A DNA stretch of 64,000 bases from a bacterium (GCA_028820935.1 JAPPHZ010000035.1:50747-114746), one strand, 5' to 3'; shown: positions 8,127 to 56,184, counted from the stretch's first letter. Numbers and translations are program-made. The notes: a model not told the origin generated them from the sequence alone.

Positions 8127-9074
8127 TCAGGCTCGGGCGGCGTCGTATCGAGCCAGGATTGCTTCGCGCAGGCGCTCGGTCTCCTCCCGGACTTCCGGTC
8201 CCTCGATCAGGCGCGCCTGGTCGCCCAGCCGCAGCAGCAGCCGGGCGCACACCCGCGCATCGGACATGGCAAAGCGGATCACCAGCTCCTCGCCGTTGTC
8301 CTCCAGTATCTCCACCGGGTAGTACTCCGCCACCCACCTGGCGCCGGAACGCAGCGCCAGCCGGGCATAGATCGCGTCAGCGGACGGCGTGTAGTCGACA
8401 TTCGTGGGAGCAGGCGGGCGGGCGGGGGGTTCGAACACCTCCCCCGACGCCTCCACCGACCGGATCCGGTCCACGCGGAACAGGCGCCGGTCACCGGCCA
8501 GACGGCAGTACGCCAGGAGGTACCAGCTTCCCATCGACGCGTGGACCATCAGCGGCTCGATGGCCCGGACGGTGGTCCGGTTGGTGCTCAGGGACAGGTA
8601 GGTGATGGTCAGCACAGTTCCGTCACGGGCCGACCGGCGCAAGGTGTCGAGGTGTCCGGGCTCGGGAGGCAACTCGGCCGCGATGACCGTGGCGGCCTCC
8701 GGGAAGAGGGCGCCGGTCAGCTTCTCGACCGCTCTCGCCAGCGCCTCGTTCCCCTGGGAGGTGCCGGCCACCGCCAGGCCGGCGCTGAGCAGTCCCAAGG
8801 CTTCGTGGGGCGTGAGCCGGAGCGGCCGGGAGAAGTAGTCGGCCATGTCCAGAACCACCTCGTCACCGTCCATGTACGCCACCATCAGGTCACCGGGGCC
8901 GTATCCGGGCAGCCCGCAGCAGAAGAGCAGGTTGAGATCGTCGGCGAGTTGGCGACGGCTCGCGTAGCCGAACCGCTCCATGACCTCGGTGACGGTCGGG
9001 TAGGGGTTGGCCAGCGCCCACGGGACCAGGGCCAGGATCCGGGCCAGCCTCTGCCGGGTCCGAGAGGCGGTCAC
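8127..9074 (-). CDS. pafC: proteasome accessory factor PafC (WYL-domain transcriptional regulator)
   Basis: HTH N-terminus (RLARILALVPWALANP) and a WYL domain (GSWYLLAYCRLAGDRRLFRVDRI). GTG start at 9074 in a GTGA overlap with the pafB stop. The 625-aa ORF that reaches 10004 is an in-frame upstream extension running through pafB in another frame. Confidence 0.8.
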   Translation of the reverse strand: MTASRTRQRLARILALVPWALANPYPTVTEVMERFGYASRRQLADDLNLLFCCGLPGYGPGDLMVAYMDGDEVVLDMADYFSRPLRLTPHEALGLLSAGLAVAGTSQGNEALARAVEKLTGALFPEAATVIAAELPPEPGHLDTLRRSARDGTVLTITYLSLSTNRTTVRAIEPLMVHASMGSWYLLAYCRLAGDRRLFRVDRIRSVEASGEVFEPPARPPAPTNVDYTPSADAIYARLALRSGARWVAEYYPVEILEDNGEELVIRFAMSDARVCARLLLRLGDQARLIEGPEVREETERLREAILARYDAARA

Positions 9075-9994
9075 CGGCCGGCCTCGAGCCGCCTGACCAT
9101 CTCGGCGCGAAGCTCCGGAGGGTCGAGGATCACCGCCCCGTCGTCGAGGTGTATGACCATGTCGATCAACGAGTCGTTCGCGTAGGGGACTTCCAGGATG
9201 GTGCCTCCCTCCTCGGTGTGCCCCACGGCCTCGGCGTCGGGGAACCGGTTCGCGACCCACCAGGCGATGTCGGCATCGCACTCGATCAGCGCGCGTTTCG
9301 GCGCCTGTTGCTCCCAGGGCAGCGACTCCAGGATGTCCCGGGCGCTGTAACCCTCGGGCCGCGGAAAAGCGTCCGGATCGCCCGCCAATTCCAACCGCTC
9401 CGCCCGATCGAGCCGGTAGGTCCTGATGGTGGGGTCCTGGTCCGGCTCGACGCCCGCGAAGTACCAATGGCCCCGCCGGTGGTGCATGCCATAGGCGCAC
9501 AGGGTGCGCGGGCGCCCGTGGTAGACGAACCGGATCGGGCGGCGCTCCAGCACCGCCTGGAAGATCAGCGCCAGGTGCTCGCTGCCCAGACCCAGGTCGG
9601 CGCCCACCGGTGTGTCCGTGTCGGCCAGCCGGGCCCCGCCCAGCTTGAGCAGGCCGTTGGCGCCCGACGGCCAGCCGCCGGAACGCACCATATGCACCGC
9701 GAGGGCCAGCGCGGTCCGTTCCTCGTCGGTGAGCCCCGGTTCGATGGTCCGGTAGTTGCTCTCGGGAACCACGTAGCCCCACTCGACCTCCCAGGCGTCG
9801 GTGGCTTCCTGCGCAAGCTCGATCCCCAGCTCGCGCAGGCTGGCCTTGTCCCGCTCGAACTTGCGATGGAAGGCCTGGTCGGACAGGTTGCCGTACCCGG
9901 CCACCGTGTTCCGGATCTGCTCGGCCGTGACGGGCCGCGGGGAATCGACCAGATAAGCCAGCAGGTTGATCAAGCGCTCGACGACGGTGCTCAT
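9071..9994 (-). CDS. pafB: proteasome accessory factor PafB (WYL-domain transcriptional regulator)
   Basis: HTH (RLINLLAYLVDSPRPVTAEQI) and a WYL-like core (RRGHWYFAGVEPDQDPTIRTYRLDR). It follows pafA, as in the conserved pafABC operon. Confidence 0.8.
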   Translation of the reverse strand: MSTVVERLINLLAYLVDSPRPVTAEQIRNTVAGYGNLSDQAFHRKFERDKASLRELGIELAQEATDAWEVEWGYVVPESNYRTIEPGLTDEERTALALAVHMVRSGGWPSGANGLLKLGGARLADTDTPVGADLGLGSEHLALIFQAVLERRPIRFVYHGRPRTLCAYGMHHRRGHWYFAGVEPDQDPTIRTYRLDRAERLELAGDPDAFPRPEGYSARDILESLPWEQQAPKRALIECDADIAWWVANRFPDAEAVGHTEEGGTILEVPYANDSLIDMVIHLDDGAVILDPPELRAEMVRRLEAGR

Positions 9995-10027
9995 GGTCTG
10001 TCAAATGTACCGATCTCGATACCCTGC

Positions 10028-10117
10028 GGCTAGTAGTAGCTAGGTGCCGGTTGCTAGTTGCTCGTGACTAGTTGTATATAATGACTAGCAACTATAGACT
10101 AGCCGACTAGAGACTAA
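10028..10117. repeat. low-GC CTAG-rich spacer (copy A), between pafB start and pafA stop
   Basis: Sequence ggctagtagtagctaggtgccggTTGCTAgttgctcgtgactagttgTATATAATgactagcaactatagactagccgactagagactaa. It carries 9 CTAG tetramers in about 90 bp, inside a genome where CTAG is otherwise almost absent. Confidence 0.8.
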
Positions 10118-11473
10118 TCATAGGCCGGCGATCAGGCGTTCCACCCGCTCGTCTGAGGCCTTGAAGGGGTCCTTGCATAGCACGGTCCGCTGGGCCTGGT
10201 CGTTCAGCTTCAGGTGGACCCAGTCCACCGTGTAGTCGCGGTTGCGGGCCTTCGCAGCGGCGATGAACCGCCCCCGCAGCCGGGCGCGGGTGGTCTGGGG
10301 GGGCTTCTCCTTGGCGATGGCGATGGCGGCGTCCGTCACGAGGCGGTCCACGACACCCCGCCGGGCCAGCAGGTAGTAGAGGCTCCGCTCCTCCGTCACA
10401 TCGTGGTAGCTGAGGTCCAACAACTGGACCCGGGCGTCGGAGAGCGCCAGGTCGTAGCGGGCCCGGTAACGCTCGATGAGGTGGTACTTGGTAACCCAGT
10501 CGACCTGGCGCTCGAGAGAGAAAGGGTCCTTCTCGAGGCCGGTGAGCAGGTGCTCCCACATCTCGACGGCTCGCTGTACCGAGGGGGGGAAGCCGGGGTT
10601 CCGGGCGTACCGGATGATCCGGTCCAGGTATTCCCACTGGATGTCGAGGGCCGACAGCATCCGGCCGTTGGCAAGGCGTACCGGTTGCCGGCAGGTCGGG
10701 TCCTGGCTGATCTCCCGGATGGCCCGGATGGGGTTGGCCAGGGTCAGGTCCCGGAACATCACGTCGGCTTCGATCATCTCCAGAAGCGCAACGGTTGCGC
10801 CCACCTTGACGTAGGTGGCGTACTCGTTCATGTTGGAGTCGCCGGCGATCACATGGAGTCGCCGGAACCGCTCGGCATCCGCGTGGGGCTCGTCACGCGT
10901 GTTGATGATGGGTCGCGACCGCGTCGTGGCCGAGGAGACCCCTTCCCAGATGTGGTCGGCGCGTTGCGAGATCGAGAAGGTGGGCCCCTTGGCAGTCTGG
11001 AGGAGCTTGCCCGCTCCCGAGAAGATCTGGCGGCTCACCAGGAACGGTATGAGGATCTCCAGCATCTTCTGGAAGTCCGCCTTGCGGAGTACCAGGTAGT
11101 TCTCGTGGCACCCGTAGGAGTTGCCGGCCGAGTCGGTGTTGTTCTTGTAGAGGAAGATGTTCCCCCGGATACCGTCGTTCCGGAGGCGTTGCTCGGCGGA
11201 ACGCTGCAAATCTTCCAGGACCCGCTCGCCGGCCTTGTCGTGGGCTACCAGATCGAGGAGGTCGTCGCACTCCGGTGTGGCGTACTCAGGATGGCTGCCC
11301 ACGTCCAGATAGAGCCGAGCCCCGTTCTCCAGGAACACGTTCGAGGACCGGCCCCACGTCACGACCCCCCGGAACAGGATGCGGGCCACCTCGTCGGGAC
11401 TGAGGCGGCGCTGACCTCGAAGCGTGCACGTGATCCCGAACTCGTTCTCGAGACCGAAGATGCGCCGTTCCAT
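10118..11473 (-). CDS. pafA: Pup--protein ligase PafA
   Basis: 451 aa, [16 protein letters not shown]..., carboxylate-amine ligase fold, paralogous to Dop. Confidence 0.95.
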
Positions 11474-11475
11474 GG

Positions 11476-11580
11476 CCCAATAGGCTAATGACTAGTTTCT
11501 AGTCGCTAGTCAGTATTTACTAGTCAGTAGTTTCTAGGTACTAGCCGTTATCTTATAAGCTTAAACATAACTAGCAACTA
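11476..11580. repeat. low-GC CTAG-rich spacer (copy B), between pafA start and prcA stop
   Basis: Sequence ...aatgactagtttctagtcgctagtcagtatttactagtcagtagtttctaggtactagccgttatcttataagcttaaacataactagcaactagg. On the pafA-sense strand it has TTGCTA, a 16-nt spacer, then TAAGAT, which is promoter-like. Confidence 0.8.
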
Positions 11581-19388: not shown

Positions 19389-19475
19389 GGTGTCGGAGAG
19401 AGGACTCGAACCTCCACGCCCTTGCGGGCACTAGGCCCTCAACCTAGCGCGTCTACCAGTTCCGCCACTCCGACC
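19389..19475 (-). tRNA. tRNA-Leu (anticodon GAG)
   Basis: Reverse complement GGTCGGAGTGGCGGAACTGGTAGACGCGCTAGGTTGAGGGCCTAG...GGTTCGAGTCC...CGACACC. Long variable arm, anticodon loop TTGAGGG. Confidence 0.85.
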
Positions 19476-29237: not shown

Positions 29238-31364
29238 TCAACCCAACGCGCCGAACCACCGGTCGTGGATCTGCTTGTAGATGCCGGACTCGATGAGGTC
29301 CAGAAGGGCCAGATCGATCCTCTCGCGTAGCGCGGTGTCGTCCTCGCTGACCATCAGCCCGTACTGAACCTTGTCGAACAGCGGGCCGACCGTGGTCACC
29401 GTGCCCTCGCCCCGGTGGGACACGTGGAACTGGAGAACCGGAGCATCGAATACGACCGCATCGACCTCGCCCTGCGCCAACTGATCGTAGGCGTCATCGA
29501 GATTGTGCACCACGACCGGGCCGACACCGATACCGGTCAGGTAGTCGTATCCGGCCGAGTCATGGACGGTAGCGATCCGGTGGCCCGGAAGATCGGCGGG
29601 TCCGTCGATGTTGCTCCGGAGTTCGTTCACCGCCAGCGACGAGGCGATAGCAGCGGTGAAGCTGGCGAATACCAGGGTTCCCAGGGCAATCCAGATCAGG
29701 GCGAACAACCTGCCTAGTCGGCCGCGGGCCACCTTGTCCCCGTAGCCGACCGTACTCATGGTGACGACGGACCAGTAGAACGAGTCCCAGATGCCCCGGC
29801 CGTACGGCACTGCGAAGTCCGGGTTGTGCTTCCGTTCCAGCCACCAGATCAGGTGGGCGGCGACCAGAACGGCAACCGCGAACACCACCAGCAGCCAGGG
29901 CAGGTCCGAACCCCAGATAGCCGACAGGAATACCCCGATGCGGTCCCAAACCGCTTGGGATCCGCTGGTGGGGGTCATGATCGTGAGGCCGGTGTCGAGC
30001 AGGGGTAGCGAGAAGTCGATCGCCTCCTCGCGCGGGCCGGTAATCACCACGCCGCCCAATCCCACGTCGGCCACTCCGCGGCTGATGTCGTCCATCTGCT
30101 TTGCCGCGGTGTCGACCGCGTAGATCTCGACCGTCATGCCGAGGCGCGCGGCGATGAGTTCCACCAAGTCTACCTCGAAGCCGCTGTACGTACCCTGGTT
30201 GTAGATGACGAAGGGCGGAAGGGTACGGGCCGCTACATGGAGCATGCCGCCTGCTGCAGTGTCATCCACGGCGCTGCCATCCAAGGCGATGGCCTCCGGA
30301 TCGGCGGCTTCGATCCACGCGGACACCACGTCCGAGTTCTGTTCCACCCATTGCTCGGCGTGGCGCCGGATGTCCTCCGGATCACCCTGGTCGCGGACCA
30401 TGTGGGCGTTCTGCAGGGAGATGTCCTCGAGAGAGATCACCACCCGTTCGAGCAGCCTGCGAACGGACGGGTTGGCATCGAGGAAGCCGGAGTTGGCCAC
30501 GGCACGGATGTCGTTGGGGGGCCATCCCACCTGGCACGGATCGTTGGCGCATCCCGGTATTCCCGGTATCGATGTGTGGTCGAGAAAGGCCGACTGGTCG
30601 GGAGGGAGGGACGGGAAGGGTGTCTCCAGCCACACCACGTCACGGCCGGGCACCAGCTCGCCGACGGTCCAGTTGGGAGTCCATGTGTAGTACAGGACCG
30701 GCTGCCCGGCCTCGAACCGGGCGATGGTTTCGGCTATCAACGGGGAGTAGTCACCCTGGACCTGTTCGACCGTCCCATCCAGTCCGAACGCCTCAAGATG
30801 GTGGTCGATGATGTGTGAACACGTCCAGCCGGTCTCGCAACCGATCAGGTCGGCCCGGCCGTCGGCGTCGAGGTCGAACAGCGCGGCGACTTCGGGATCG
30901 GCCAGATCTCCGAGGTTGGTGATGCGGTACGCCCCTGCCGTGGCAGCGTCGACGAAGTAGCCCTGGAGTGCCCCCGCGTCGACCTGCGTCCCGATCCGCT
31001 CCACGAGGTCCTCCTCGATGAGGCCGTCGTGGGTGGGGAACCATCCGTTCACCCAGAGATCGACCTCACCGGCGGCCACCGCGCGGTAGAAGTCCGGGTT
31101 CTCCATGGTGACCGGACCTTCCACGCGATACCCCAGGCGCATTAGGAGGAGACGGTAAACCTCGGCCTGGAACCAGCCGGTGTCCCAGGTCGCCCTGGCC
31201 ATGCGCACCGTCTTCGCCTCGACGGGATCCCCATCCGGCTGGCCCGACGCGGGGACGACCGCCATCATGGCCAGCAATGCCAGAGCCGACAGCGAACAGG
31301 CGATCAGGGTGCGGCGCACGATGGTCTCCGGTAGGGACTCCGCCAAGGCTAGCGATGTCTCCAT
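29238..31364 (-). CDS. iGluR-like ligand-gated K+ channel: signal/TM, ProX/OpuAC-like betaine-binding domain, SBP type-3 lobe S1, M1-pore(TVGYGD)-M2, lobe S2
   Basis: The N-terminal ~350 aa are paralogous to the downstream ProX lipoprotein (shared DxDGxGxADxIGCxxGWxC and YxWTPNWT motifs). Then comes an SBP_bac_3-like lobe (GFEVDLVELIAARLG...DFSLP), a TM helix, the pore helix with K+ selectivity filter MSTVGYGD, a second TM, and a second SBP lobe (...VDAVVFDAPVLQF...). This is the GluR0-type topology. Confidence 0.85.
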   Translation of the reverse strand: METSLALAESLPETIVRRTLIACSLSALALLAMMAVVPASGQPDGDPVEAKTVRMARATWDTGWFQAEVYRLLLMRLGYRVEGPVTMENPDFYRAVAAGEVDLWVNGWFPTHDGLIEEDLVERIGTQVDAGALQGYFVDAATAGAYRITNLGDLADPEVAALFDLDADGRADLIGCETGWTCSHIIDHHLEAFGLDGTVEQVQGDYSPLIAETIARFEAGQPVLYYTWTPNWTVGELVPGRDVVWLETPFPSLPPDQSAFLDHTSIPGIPGCANDPCQVGWPPNDIRAVANSGFLDANPSVRRLLERVVISLEDISLQNAHMVRDQGDPEDIRRHAEQWVEQNSDVVSAWIEAADPEAIALDGSAVDDTAAGGMLHVAARTLPPFVIYNQGTYSGFEVDLVELIAARLGMTVEIYAVDTAAKQMDDISRGVADVGLGGVVITGPREEAIDFSLPLLDTGLTIMTPTSGSQAVWDRIGVFLSAIWGSDLPWLLVVFAVAVLVAAHLIWWLERKHNPDFAVPYGRGIWDSFYWSVVTMSTVGYGDKVARGRLGRLFALIWIALGTLVFASFTAAIASSLAVNELRSNIDGPADLPGHRIATVHDSAGYDYLTGIGVGPVVVHNLDDAYDQLAQGEVDAVVFDAPVLQFHVSHRGEGTVTTVGPLFDKVQYGLMVSEDDTALRERIDLALLDLIESGIYKQIHDRWFGALG

Positions 31365-31517
31365 ACGTCCTCATGGAACAAATACCTGGGTTTCTCCGTA
31401 CTCGCGGTCTGCTTGGGCTATAGAGTGAATGGCACAGGGCTCGGCTGTGAATTGCCGTGCACCTGGCTGGCGATTGAAAGGAGGCCCGTATGGTCATGAG
31501 AATCGGGAGGAGGTTCC

Positions 31518-33296
31518 ATGGCTGACAACAAAGGCCACGACCAGGACCTGGACCTCACCGGCATCTCCGAGGCCTACGAGGACTGGGAGAAGGACCAGGA
31601 CCGCCGCCGCGAGGCTGCCATCCGGGAACGTGCACACTTCCAGGGTCTTCAGGTAGACCCCGACATCGACTTCTATCCCGAGGTGGCCGACCGGGAGCCC
31701 GGTGACAAGAACATAGTCAGGTGGGGATTTGACATACATCCCCAGGTGACGTTCTACGCCGCCGGATTCCTGGTGATTTTCATAGCGGCCACCCTGATCT
31801 TCCCGGATCAGGCGGGCGGGGTGTTCAGCGCCATCCTCACCTTCATCAACGAGAAGGTGGGCTGGCTGTACATCATCGCGTTCAACGTCTTCATCGGCGC
31901 CGCGCTCTACTTCGCGTTGGGCAGGTACGGCAAGATACGACTAGGCGGCCCGGGGGCCCTTCCGGAGTTCTCCACACCCGCCTGGTACGCCATGCTGATC
32001 TCGGCCGGTCTCGGCATCGGGTTGATGTTCTGGGGCGTGGCAGAGCCGATCTTCCACCTGACGGCGCCGCCTCCCCTGTTCGACGTGGAACCCTTGTCGA
32101 CGGGCGCGGCCCGGGCATCGCTGGCGACCTCCTACCTCCACTGGGGGATCCATGGGTGGGCGCTGTACGGCCTGGTAGCCCTCGCCCTCGGGTTCTTCGC
32201 CTATAACCGAGGACTACCCCTGACCTTCCGCTCGGTCTTCTACCCGATCCTGGGTCCGAAGATCTACGGCGGATGGGGCAACGCCATCGACATCCTCACC
32301 GTGGTGGCCACCCTCTTCGGTCTGGCTACTTCGCTGGGGTTCGGCGCCTCGCAGGCCGCTGCGGGGCTGAACAAGGTCTTCGGTGTCCCGGACACCCTGT
32401 TGGTCCAGATTCTGCTGATCGCAGGTATCACGGGGCTGGCCACCATCTCGGTTGTGGCCGGCTTGGACGCCGGAGTCAAGCGGCTCAGCGCGCTCAACGT
32501 ATGGCTGGCCGCGGCCTTCCTGGTCTTCGTGCTGGCGGTGGGCCCGACCCTGCTGGTCCTCTCGCTGTACGTGGAGAGCATCGGCGTCTACATCCAGATC
32601 CTTCCGGAGTTCTCGTTCTGGAACGCAGCCCTGCTTGACACGCAGTGGCAGCAGTGGTGGACCATCTTCTACTGGGGATGGTGGATCTCCTGGTCCCCCT
32701 TCGTAGGCATGTTCATCGCCCGGATCTCCAAGGGGCGCTCGGTGCGGGAAATGATCGTCGGTACGATCGTCCTTCCCTGCCTCCTGTGCTTCCTGTGGTT
32801 CGCGGTGTTCGGCGGAGCAGCCATGAACCTGCAGATGACCGGCGAACTGGACGTTGCTACGGCGGTGAACGAAAACGTGGCGACCGCCCTGTTCGTGATG
32901 CTGGAGGCCTTCCCATGGACCTTCTTCGTCTCGATAGTGGGCATCCTGCTACTGGTCTCGTTCTTCGTCACCTCGTCGGACTCGGGATCCCTGGTGGTGG
33001 ACCACCTGACTTCGGGCGGAAAGCTCGACTCGCCCAAACCGCAGCGCGTGTTCTGGGCGTTGATGGAAGGCGCGGTGGCGATCGTGTTGCTGGCCGGAGG
33101 CGGCCTGTCCGCCCTACAGACGGCTGCCGTGGCTACCGGACTGCCCTTCCTCTTCGTGCTGCTGATCATGCTCTGGAGCCTGAAGAAGGCCTTCGACGAG
33201 GAACTCGACCTCTTGGAGAGCCACTACGACGAGGCCATCTTCCAAGCCCAGCACAGCGGCTTGATCGAGCGGCTGGAGAGAGGAGGTGAAGCATGA
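31518..33296 (+). CDS. BCCT family betaine/carnitine/choline transporter
   Basis: 592 aa, 12 TM, BCCT signature region ...RLGGPGALPEFSTPAWYAMLISAGLGIGLMFWGVAEP... A strong GGGAGGAGG RBS. Confidence 0.9.
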   Translation: MADNKGHDQDLDLTGISEAYEDWEKDQDRRREAAIRERAHFQGLQVDPDIDFYPEVADREPGDKNIVRWGFDIHPQVTFYAAGFLVIFIAATLIFPDQAGGVFSAILTFINEKVGWLYIIAFNVFIGAALYFALGRYGKIRLGGPGALPEFSTPAWYAMLISAGLGIGLMFWGVAEPIFHLTAPPPLFDVEPLSTGAARASLATSYLHWGIHGWALYGLVALALGFFAYNRGLPLTFRSVFYPILGPKIYGGWGNAIDILTVVATLFGLATSLGFGASQAAAGLNKVFGVPDTLLVQILLIAGITGLATISVVAGLDAGVKRLSALNVWLAAAFLVFVLAVGPTLLVLSLYVESIGVYIQILPEFSFWNAALLDTQWQQWWTIFYWGWWISWSPFVGMFIARISKGRSVREMIVGTIVLPCLLCFLWFAVFGGAAMNLQMTGELDVATAVNENVATALFVMLEAFPWTFFVSIVGILLLVSFFVTSSDSGSLVVDHLTSGGKLDSPKPQRVFWALMEGAVAIVLLAGGGLSALQTAAVATGLPFLFVLLIMLWSLKKAFDEELDLLESHYDEAIFQAQHSGLIERLERGGEA

Positions 33297-34225
33297 TCAA
33301 GCGATCGAGCACTCTGATCGCCGCGGTCGCGGCCTTCGTGGTGGTGCTCTCGGCCTGCGCCGTGCAGGAAGAGGAGGGCCCCGTGGCGATCGCCCGGGCC
33401 GACTGGAGTTCCGGCTACATGCAGGCCGCCATCTACGCGCAGCTGATCGAGGAGCTCGGGTACGAGGTCACCGATCCGGCGGCCGCCGAGCTCAGGCCTT
33501 ACTCGTTCTATCCGGCTCTTGCGGCCGGCCAGTACGATTTGTGGGCCAACGGCTGGTTCCCACTCCACAATTTCTTCCTGGAGGGAGAAAACGTCACCGG
33601 CCAAGCGGTCGATCTACCCATCGAGCCGGTGGGCTGGCAGGTCAGGGGCGGCGGCGGCGAAGGCATCATGGTCGACAAGGCCACGGCCGACCGGCTGGGC
33701 ATCTCCTCGATGGACGGTGTGGCCGCAAACGCCGGCGTCTTCGACAAGAACGGCAACGGCAAGGCGGACTTCATCGGCTGCAATGTCGGATGGGGATGCC
33801 AGATCGCCTTCAACGAGCAGATCGCCAACGAGAGCTGGGGCGTCGGCGTGGAGCAGATCTCCGGCACCTACGACCAGCTGATCAGAGGCGTCATCGACGA
33901 GATACAGGCCGGCGAGTCGGCGGTGTTCTATGCCTGGACCCCCAACTGGACCAGCACCGTCCTGGTGCCGGGCCAGAATGCCGTGTGGGTGCAGTCCGAC
34001 ATCAACGACATCCGAGCGGTGGCCAACACCGACTTCCTGGATAGGAACCCGGACATCCGCCGCCTTCTCGAGGTGGTGGCGATCCCGTTGGAGGACATCG
34101 CGGCGCAGAACGCCAGAATGGCCGCCGGGGAGTACTCCGAGGCTGACATCGAGGCTGACGCCGAGGCTTGGATCGCCGACAACCGGGACCAGGTCGATGA
34201 CTGGCTGGCAACGGCACGCGGCTGA
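33293..34225 (+). CDS. glycine betaine/proline betaine-binding lipoprotein (ProX/OpuAC family)
   Basis: Lipoprotein signal with lipobox (VVLSAC), then a ProX-like substrate-binding fold. ATGA overlap with the BCCT stop. Confidence 0.85.
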   Translation: MIKRSSTLIAAVAAFVVVLSACAVQEEEGPVAIARADWSSGYMQAAIYAQLIEELGYEVTDPAAAELRPYSFYPALAAGQYDLWANGWFPLHNFFLEGENVTGQAVDLPIEPVGWQVRGGGGEGIMVDKATADRLGISSMDGVAANAGVFDKNGNGKADFIGCNVGWGCQIAFNEQIANESWGVGVEQISGTYDQLIRGVIDEIQAGESAVFYAWTPNWTSTVLVPGQNAVWVQSDINDIRAVANTDFLDRNPDIRRLLEVVAIPLEDIAAQNARMAAGEYSEADIEADAEAWIADNRDQVDDWLATARG

Positions 34226-46111: not shown

Positions 46112-46130
46112 GCGATGATCGTAGCCGTAG

Positions 46131-46214
46131 TACCGGGAATGGGACTCGAACCCATACGCCCTTGCGGGCACCGGATTTTGAGTCCGGCGCGTCTACCAAT
46201 TCCGCCATCCCGGC
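46131..46214 (-). tRNA. tRNA-Leu (anticodon CAA)
   Basis: Reverse complement GCCGGGATGGCGGAATTGGTAGACGCGCCGGACTCAAAATCCGG...GGTTCGAGTCCCATTCCCGGTA. Long variable arm. Confidence 0.85.

Positions 46215-56107: not shown

Positions 56108-56184
<77 letters not shown>

Follow-up and report, generated by a model that had tools for sequence, protein, structure and literature searches.

A candidate betaine-sensing and uptake module of Acidimicrobiia that links a ProX-fused GluR0-type channel, a BCCT carrier and a free binding protein

Introduction

Do an ion channel, a secondary transporter and a substrate-binding protein (SBP) that are encoded side by side in a sponge-symbiont bacterium act as one system for compatible solutes? 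This question is raised by positions 29238-34225 of a 64,000-nucleotide stretch of DNA (GCA_028820935.1, JAPPHZ010000035.1:50747-114746; in the following, the window), for which an original prediction, made from the sequence alone, had reported three genes. Calling of open reading frames (ORFs) on the window confirmed all three at these coordinates. They encode a GluR0-type channel with a ProX-class domain at its N-terminus, a BCCT-family carrier that is indeed divergent from the channel gene, as seen from the ORFs and a PF02028 match of 612 bits, and a ProX-type lipoprotein whose start codon overlaps the stop codon of the carrier gene. Judged from sequence comparisons, we give a probability of about one half to the reading that the three genes form one module which senses and imports betaine-type solutes, i.e. 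quaternary or methylated amines.

Results and Discussion

Domain architecture and pore of the channel

When the longest ORF of the channel gene (29238-31364, 708 aa; its residue numbers are used throughout) was compared with Pfam, all four families that had been proposed for a domain search were matched: OpuAC at aa 51-342 (E = 3.6e-50; PF04069 with 171 bits against a cutoff of 21.2), SBP_bac_3 split over aa 380-705 (E = 4.7e-25) and, lying between the two SBP_bac_3 halves at aa 490-593, Ion_trans_2 (aa 496-577, E = 2.3e-15) and Lig_chan (E = 3.8e-10). Lig_chan-Glu_bd was found as well (E = 8.9e-8). Together with the hydropathy profile, which displays an N-terminal signal or anchor at aa 19-37, M1 at about aa 491-509, M2 at about aa 553-577 and no C-terminal transmembrane helix, these matches bear out the GluR0 topology of lobe S1, M1, pore helix, M2 and lobe S2. 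The proposed paralogy between the N-terminal domain and the neighbouring lipoprotein likewise stands, given the OpuAC match and an identity of 37-38% between the two; against the NCBIfam ProX equivalog NF008334 the channel reaches 340.8 bits (cutoff 215).

The predicted K+ selectivity filter TVGYGD is present at aa 538-543 and unchanged in 120 of 120 database homologues and in 33 of 33 fusion proteins from metagenomes, so that the filter of this pore appears intact. The solved structure closest to the ligand-binding domain (LBD) formed by S1 and S2 is the Nostoc GluR0 homologue 2PYY, and the two stretches that align with it flank the pore. The channel core also matches NMDA receptor and plant GLR chains at about 1e-17, and the SFTAAIASSLAV stretch in M2 resembles SYTANLAAF, the gating motif of ionotropic glutamate receptors (iGluRs). 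The linker between the ProX domain and S1 has a mean conservation of 0.63, compared to 0.8-0.9 for the domains, and a predicted local distance difference test score (pLDDT) below 50 at aa 358-372. The ligand-binding domains had initially been placed in the periplasm. As the host is a monoderm member of the Acidimicrobiia, they have to be regarded as extracytoplasmic instead.

Ligand-binding residues of the two layers

The ProX domain of the channel aligns to E. coli ProX (1R9L) at 2e-61. In this alignment W65, W140 and W188 of the E. coli protein correspond to W108, W180 and W228 of the channel, H69 to H112, and C136 and C142 to C176 and C182. The three tryptophans, H69 and the C136-C142 region are the betaine contacts of the ProX structure, the cysteine region holding the carboxylate. 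The corresponding residues of the channel vary little or not at all among 63 aligned homologues, 88 channels derived from genome loci and the 33 metagenome fusions at 46-89% identity; in the 88 channels the three positions of the Trp box are occupied by Trp in 87, 86 and 82 cases. The N-terminal region is thus clearly ProX-like, with an intact box. The box is also kept in the lipoprotein, together with the counterparts of H69, C136 and C142, with Trp in 78, 78 and 72 of 78 lipoproteins and Tyr in the remaining 6 at the third position. Both ProX domains retain the glycine-betaine/proline-betaine Trp box and are predicted to bind betaines.

In the S1/S2 layer, Arg445 and Asp640 align with R75 and D157 of the glutamine-binding protein (GlnBP) and with the respective Nostoc residues. 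In GlnBP, R75 and D157 are the contacts of the alpha-carboxylate and of the alpha-amino group. Arg445 is conserved in 33 and Asp640 in 32 of the 33 metagenome fusions, and V417 and T419 are also kept.

The BCCT carrier and the free ProX lipoprotein

Besides PF02028, the carrier matches TIGR00842 with 489.7 bits (cutoff 407.55) and stays below the glycine-betaine equivalog NF047988 (538 bits, cutoff 650). Its motifs GLGIG (with no Asp), HWGIHGWALY in transmembrane segment (TM) 4 and WGWWISW in TM8 align with the respective residues of TmaT. According to published marker rules, GxGxG lacking Asp denotes Na+ coupling, and W/W/Y in TM4 together with W/W/W in TM8 denotes transport of quaternary amines (PMC11708041). 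The Phe markers of choline and dimethylsulfoniopropionate (DMSP) transporters are missing from the carrier. Among its solved relatives TmaT scores highest (505 bits), followed by BetT (365 bits) and BetP (300 bits). The betaine substrate of the prediction has to be widened to a quaternary or methylated amine, as the sequence does not fix the exact compound: glycine betaine is the most plausible candidate, but this is not settled, because the best solved relative, TmaT, is specific for trimethylamine and the score stays below the glycine-betaine cutoff.

The lipoprotein matches OpuAC with 122 bits (PF04069) and NCBIfam ProX with 221 bits (cutoff 215), and carries the lipobox LSAC at nt 33347-33358. 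The overlap of the BCCT stop and the ProX start in an ATGA was found as described, at 33293-33296, and is preceded by AGGAGG 7 nt upstream. An origin of the fused domain from a recent duplication of the lipoprotein can be ruled out, as it is only 37-38% identical to the latter and 53-55% identical to ProX proteins linked to ABC transporters.

A Cys-x4-Cys loop (GCANDPC) was considered as a mark of channel-fused ProX domains and rejected, since stand-alone and BCCT-linked ProX proteins often have it as well. In the clade of the window the lipoprotein lacks a segment of about 35 residues that includes this loop; the segment is kept in the ProX domain of the channel and in BCCT-linked ProX proteins of other clades (e.g. 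at loci L013, L022 and L037). The Cys-x4-Cys motif is also missing from E. coli ProX.

Channel, carrier and free binding protein remain linked in two lineages

The original prediction of an integrated three-gene unit was based on a single locus. It is now backed by a survey of the neighbourhoods of ProX-fused channel genes, in which channel, BCCT and a free OpuAC-family protein stay linked. Among the best 80 loci from contigs representing one genome per species, BCCT and ProX genes lie beside the channel gene in 76; the exceptions are two loci cut inside the BCCT gene, one contig that ends just upstream of the channel gene, and a second channel copy (L016). The divergent order of the window occurs in 63 loci, BCCT-ProX-channel in the same direction in 7, and a channel gene facing a convergent BCCT-ProX pair in 6. 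The flanking genes vary, with uvrA and uvrC found in a subset of these loci only, whereas at the BCCT-ProX junction the two genes overlap by 4 nt or are separated by about 31 nt in essentially every Acidimicrobiia locus. A clade of 48% identity has a fourth order, channel-BCCT-OpuAC, with a BCCT/OpuAC overlap of again 4 nt.

Furthermore, a second lineage (about 48-50% identity, GC content 0.46-0.62) shows the order BCCT-OpuAC-fusion at seven loci (L110, L113, L115, L118, L123, L130 and L137) and a fusion gene facing a convergent BCCT-OpuAC pair at another four (L128, L129, L139 and L140). The free binding protein of this lineage belongs with OpuAC of B. subtilis (2B4L, 9e-61) and not with the ProX type. 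That the three functions stay together in two lineages, although gene order and the kind of free binding protein differ, provides strong evidence that the three-gene set is a functional module.

At locus L110 a gene for a RACo-type corrinoid-protein activator and a convergent ProX-ProW-ProV operon flank the BCCT-OpuAC-channel set (at 371-2341 and 8279-11515), and this locus looks like an island for the transport and possibly the demethylation of betaine. In one Acidimicrobiales genome (OZ220747.1) two channel copies are present, at L016 and L060, only one of which is accompanied by a BCCT-ProX pair.

Distribution of the fusion family

Full-length fusions with 68-100% identity made up at least 120 clusters (90% identity level) in a word-indexed protein search. 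An exhaustive search of 1.84 billion cluster representatives yielded about 11 full-length fusion clusters (50% identity) down to 35% identity, and the fusion architecture was confirmed by Pfam in ten of them. The 80 genome loci comprise 79 metagenome-assembled genomes (MAGs), and all are assigned to Acidimicrobiia or to an unclassified "bacterium"; many of the MAGs are named Candidatus Spongiisocius, Poriferisodalis, Poriferisocius or Aldehydirespirator. In a scan of metagenome contigs that was seeded with the BCCT-linked ProX clade, the fusion was found in 38 of 80 loci. As the GC content of these loci spans 0.46-0.69, more than one lineage carries the fusion. In a rough neighbour-joining tree with no support values the fused ProX domains fall into two groups and are mixed with stand-alone proteins; this tree is too rough for a claim for or against a single origin of the fusion.

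The public 690-708-aa fusion proteins (P0001, P0011, P0062 and others) are named by NCBI as ProX ABC transporter substrate-binding proteins only, whereas the JGI name of P0128 lists both halves of the fusion. Neither an OpuAC/ProX-fused glutamate-receptor channel nor a binding-protein-paired BCCT is described in the literature that was searched, with subscription journals mostly outside it, and no paper that names or characterises this architecture was found there. The sequences are thus public but uncharacterised and mostly misnamed, and the fusion is a broad uncharacterised family.

On a low-GC contig (L081, 10001-15097) two adjacent fusion genes encode a protein of 1008 aa, in which the ProX domain occurs twice in tandem, and one of 689 aa. 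Both proteins have SGREGWGK at the filter site, and because this sequence replaces the K+ filter their pore is expected to be non-selective for K+ or non-conducting. A gene for a cyclic nucleotide (cNMP)-binding protein lies upstream, its end sharing 14 nt with the first fusion gene, and genes for a GMC-oxidoreductase, a GCV_T and a MetH-like protein lie nearby. At L085 (5981-10073) two fusion paralogues of 675 and 690 aa with a K+-type filter overlap by 8 nt, the second Trp of the box being replaced in both; this adjacency suggests heteromeric channels. Elsewhere the same ProX subfamily is joined to SBP_bac_11 and VWA domains, WD40 propellers, caspase and PEGA domains, a trypsin-like protease or Peripla_BP_6 (P0139, P0146, P0154, P0157 and P0204), which suggests wide reuse of ProX as a sensor or adaptor module.

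A possible mechanism and its alternatives

From these comparisons we infer a tetrameric assembly, K+ conduction, the ligands, an allosteric role of ProX, a hand-off from the SBP to the BCCT, and a direction and purpose of the K+ flux, which could be combined as follows. The 693-aa channel protein would assemble as a tetrameric, K+-selective channel of the GluR0 type with two clamshell layers stacked outside the cytoplasm. The gate would open when the S1/S2 clamshell closes, as can be expected from GluR0 and the iGluRs; S1/S2 is assigned as the gate-pulling element because the GluR0-like interruption by the pore and the Arg/Asp pair for an alpha-amino acid are kept. The distal ProX domain on its flexible linker of about 20 residues would most likely report external betaine and modulate gating, much as the amino-terminal domain (ATD) of NMDA receptors modulates gating allosterically. 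The BCCT would import the solute together with Na+, and the free OpuAC-family protein, translated along with either the transporter or the channel, would most likely capture the solute and pass it on to the BCCT. In the presence of betaine the K+ path would open, and K+ movement could offset the charge of the electrogenic Na+/betaine uptake. Such a path might also allow the cell to swap K+, its primary osmolyte, for the compatible solute. We are not aware of a route that has been assigned to the K+ movements seen with betaine uptake.

Several observations weigh against a betaine-sensing and -importing module or narrow its scope. If the membrane potential is normal and external K+ about 10 mM, a K+ channel that opens would tend to admit K+ rather than release it; the direction of the flux, which depends on the membrane potential and on K+ levels, is thus uncertain and could equally be inward. 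An AlphaFold2 monomer model of the channel, computed with a 63-sequence alignment, reached a mean pLDDT of 63.6 and a predicted template-modelling score (pTM) of 0.39, and a model of this quality does not permit contacts between the ProX domain and the LBD to be assessed. In the LBD pocket, Tyr and Ser of the GluR0 homologues are replaced by Val417 and Val440, and the ligand of this layer therefore cannot be named. No BCCT gene lies nearby in several distant fusion clades (L081, L082, L083 and L085), and the L016 channel copy has no BCCT-ProX pair. One clade (P0122/P0134) has a non-K+ pore, and P0125, P0126 and P0129 carry another residue in place of the second Trp of the box. The betaine/K+ reading therefore covers the second lineage and the clade of the Acidimicrobiia, and does not necessarily extend to all members of the family. 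Finally, to our knowledge all BCCT carriers studied so far work alone and need no binding protein, and no BCCT-OpuAC fusion was detected among ten long ProX-containing representatives, which had been ranked by similarity to the ProX domain of the channel rather than drawn from an exhaustive set.

The last two points would fit a free ProX/OpuAC protein that does not serve the BCCT, being instead an orphan SBP for a distant ABC importer or a partner or buffer of the channel, with adjacency reflecting co-regulation. Two features of the second lineage point the same way: the gene of its free OpuAC protein overlaps that of the channel, its distance from the BCCT gene being about 137 nt, and a canonical ProX-ProW-ProV operon adjoins the module at L110 and L113. 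We consider this alternative rather unlikely, although it deserves attention. It does not account for the tight BCCT-ProX junction in Acidimicrobiia nor for BCCT-ProX pairs that exist with no channel (L088, L098 and L105), and in the neighbour-joining tree the BCCT-linked ProX proteins cluster as a clade of their own. By comparison, P0141, which among stand-alone proteins is most closely related to the fused domain, is encoded in a ProV-ProW operon. Nor is there a conserved ABC partner: in the surroundings of the module in the 80 genome loci and in the window, which is what this check covered, only UvrA homologues and one unrelated 349-aa ORF (L021) resembled ABC ATPases. In addition, the analogous pairing of TAXI proteins with GltS carriers has been accepted on similar evidence, having been proposed from translational coupling, with further support from fused SBP-transporter proteins (PMC12344293).

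In a second alternative the fused ProX domain would have no part in gating. It might merely be a membrane-tethered capture protein that feeds the BCCT or a distant ABC importer, with the channel being an ordinary amino-acid-gated GluR0. Monoderms must anchor their binding proteins, for which the N-terminus of the channel could serve, and binding domains fused to membrane proteins are known, e.g. in OpuA of L. lactis (PDB 7AHC, among the OpuAC matches). The linker is long and poorly conserved, the ProX subfamily occurs in fusions with a variety of unrelated domains (VWA, WD40, caspase-PEGA, trypsin, another SBP), and in Acidimicrobiia the BCCT nearly always adjoins the channel. However, the fusion is kept in lineages with no nearby BCCT, over 35-100% identity it never involves a partner other than this GluR0-type channel, and the separate free binding protein of the module would make a copy borne by the channel redundant. 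A mere tether is improbable in our view.

Least convincing is a betaine-loaded, closed ProX as the real agonist that docks on an S1/S2 layer acting as a mechanical transducer with no small ligand of its own: docking of binding proteins on membrane sensors is well known (PMC8050422) and the pocket changes, i.e. the loss of the aromatic lid at Val417 and of Ser at Val440, would fit, but the retention of Arg445 and Asp640 over about 46-89% identity, along with V417 and T419, is hard to explain unless S1/S2 binds a small molecule, and docking as the agonist step is quite improbable.

We therefore retain, at the odds given above, a module that senses and imports betaine-type solutes. A more far-reaching version would be an electro-osmotic module of three parts, in which a betaine-sensing second clamshell was acquired independently, the BCCT is the first binding-protein-dependent carrier of the LeuT fold, and the K+ flux is matched to import. 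This version is tentative and, on balance, doubtful.

Relation to known systems

With GluR0 of Synechocystis PCC 6803, Nostoc 2PYY and the 'Group 1' channels the window channel has in common the split SBP_bac_3 domain, TVGYGD, the lack of M4 and of a cytoplasmic tail, and the Arg/Asp pair. It differs from GluR0 by the additional OpuAC/ProX-type domain of about 300 residues N-terminal of S1, by Val417 and Val440 in the pocket, and by its genetic tie to a BCCT and a free binding protein. Neither betaine nor OpuAC or ProX is named in the survey from which the 'Group 1' channels are taken (Ger et al. 2010; PMC2950845), which covers glutamate receptor channels of prokaryotes. In eukaryotic AMPA and NMDA receptors two clamshells are likewise stacked extracellularly over the pore. 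In the window channel, however, the pore is of the K+ type, M4 is missing, and the distal layer belongs to the ProX/OpuAC type rather than to the LIVBP-like ATD type, for which reason the two-layer design would be an independent acquisition. If true, it would have arisen more than once, and the channel would offer a simple bacterial system for gating by a distal clamshell.

The fold family and the cation-pi Trp box of the fused domain and the lipoprotein are those of E. coli ProX (ProU; 1R9L) and B. subtilis OpuAC (2B4L). These proteins serve ABC importers, whereas of the two copies described here one is part of an ion channel and the translation of the second is coupled to that of a BCCT. Another OpuAC-family protein, CosB of Halobacterium salinarum, senses compatible solutes and signals to the chemotaxis transducer CosT (PMC8050422); it acts as a separate protein and not as a fused domain. 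That a compatible-solute binding protein can gate a GluR0 pore is known from an engineered ectoine-gated GluR0-EhuB channel (bioRxiv 10.1101/2021.01.27.428399). There, EhuB replaces the LBD, whereas in the window channel ProX is added on top of it.

The carrier shares the full BCCT domain, GxGxG (here GLGIG) and the TM4 and TM8 aromatics with BetP, BetT and TmaT, and differs from them by the co-translated binding-protein gene that follows it. Its C-terminal tail is short and acidic by sequence, in contrast to the long, basic, K+-sensing tail of BetP. A binding-protein gene that is coupled to that of a secondary carrier and kept across taxa with no ABC genes is also known from TRAP, TTT and TAXI-GltS systems, whose carriers are of the elevator type. 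A BCCT that uses a binding protein would, if confirmed, add a LeuT-fold member to the few binding-protein-dependent secondary transporters. In the same case the channel would be a testable candidate for tying K+ movement to compatible-solute availability, and a molecular candidate for betaine-linked K+ fluxes. Hundreds of fusion channels are annotated under a ProX SBP name that hides their ion-channel half, and the module is apparently a core feature of Acidimicrobiia MAGs, many of them with sponge-derived names.

Gene start, divergent region and surroundings of the module

The coordinates of the genes and their parts are collected in Table 1. Although the channel ORF predicted originally does exist, its length of 708 aa is over-extended by 15 codons (31317-31364): in 15 aligned loci the conserved start is a GTG at 31319, with GGAG 7 nt upstream, and homologues of 690-694 aa agree with the resulting 693-aa product. 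With this start the divergent non-coding region, whose existence had been recognised correctly, measures about 198 bp and not 150 bp.

Table 1. Coordinates of the three genes, the parts of the channel and the upstream elements in the window (residue numbers of the 708-aa ORF)
Feature	Position (nt)	Strand	Basis
Channel gene, ProX-GluR0 fusion, 693 aa	29238..31319	-	ORF, domains, start conserved in 15 aligned loci
N-terminal hydrophobic segment (signal peptide or membrane anchor), aa 19-37	31254..31310	-	hydropathy
ProX/OpuAC-type ligand-binding domain, aa 51-354	30303..31214	-	Pfam, NCBIfam, alignment to 1R9L, residue conservation
Linker of about 20 residues from ProX to lobe S1, aa 355-374	30243..30302	-	low conservation, low pLDDT
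Lobe S1 of GluR0-type domain, aa 375-468, with invariant Arg445	29961..30242	-	alignment to 2PYY; GlnBP R75 = R445
M1 helix, aa 487-510	29835..29906	-	hydropathy, Ion_trans_2 and Lig_chan matches
Pore helix and K+ filter; TVGYGD, aa 538-543, at nt 29736-29753	29736..29795	-	read from the sequence
M2 helix, aa 551-580, with invariant SFTAAIASSLAV stretch	29625..29714	-	hydropathy; columns F566-V579 invariant
Lobe S2, aa 588-705, with Asp640 in FDAP motif; no M4 after it	29250..29603	-	alignment to 2PYY; GlnBP D157 = D640
GCTAGCCTTGG element with TAnnnT-type -10-like hexamer TAGCCT, about 27 nt upstream of the actual channel start	31343..31353	-	conserved across aligned divergent loci
Upstream ORF, 11 codons (MVMRIGRRFHG)	31490..31525	+	conserved in about 20 loci
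BCCT-family secondary transporter, 592 aa, predicted Na+-coupled quaternary/methylated-amine type	31518..33296	+	PF02028, TIGR00842, motifs compared with TmaT
ProX-type lipoprotein, 310 aa, Trp box intact	33293..34225	+	domain matches, lipobox, residue alignment

We infer that the conserved GCTAGCCTTGG element is the putative promoter of the channel gene; consensus scans of the divergent region for promoters and terminators gave matches at chance level. On the other strand, the Shine-Dalgarno sequence GAAAGGAG ends 6 nt upstream of the short upstream ORF, and the TGA of this ORF overlaps codons 2-3 of the BCCT gene (ATGGCTGA). Length, Shine-Dalgarno sequence and overlap, but not the peptide itself, are preserved in about 20 loci of the closest clade; the ORF is absent from the Aldehydirespirator and Poriferisodalis clades. 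The upstream ORF may be a device for translational control or coupling of the BCCT gene.

A riboswitch or other known RNA element in the divergent region was also considered and rejected, as a scan of the whole window at Rfam gathering scores matched three tRNAs only. These are the tRNA genes Leu-GAG, Leu-CAA and Met-CAT, located at 19389-19474, 46130-46214 and 56108-56184, respectively, on the minus strand. The window matches contig JAPPLL010000004.1 of GCA_028819445.1. The neighbours of the module in the window are housekeeping genes, namely pgk, rapZ, uvrC, a methyltransferase gene, uvrA and uvrB.

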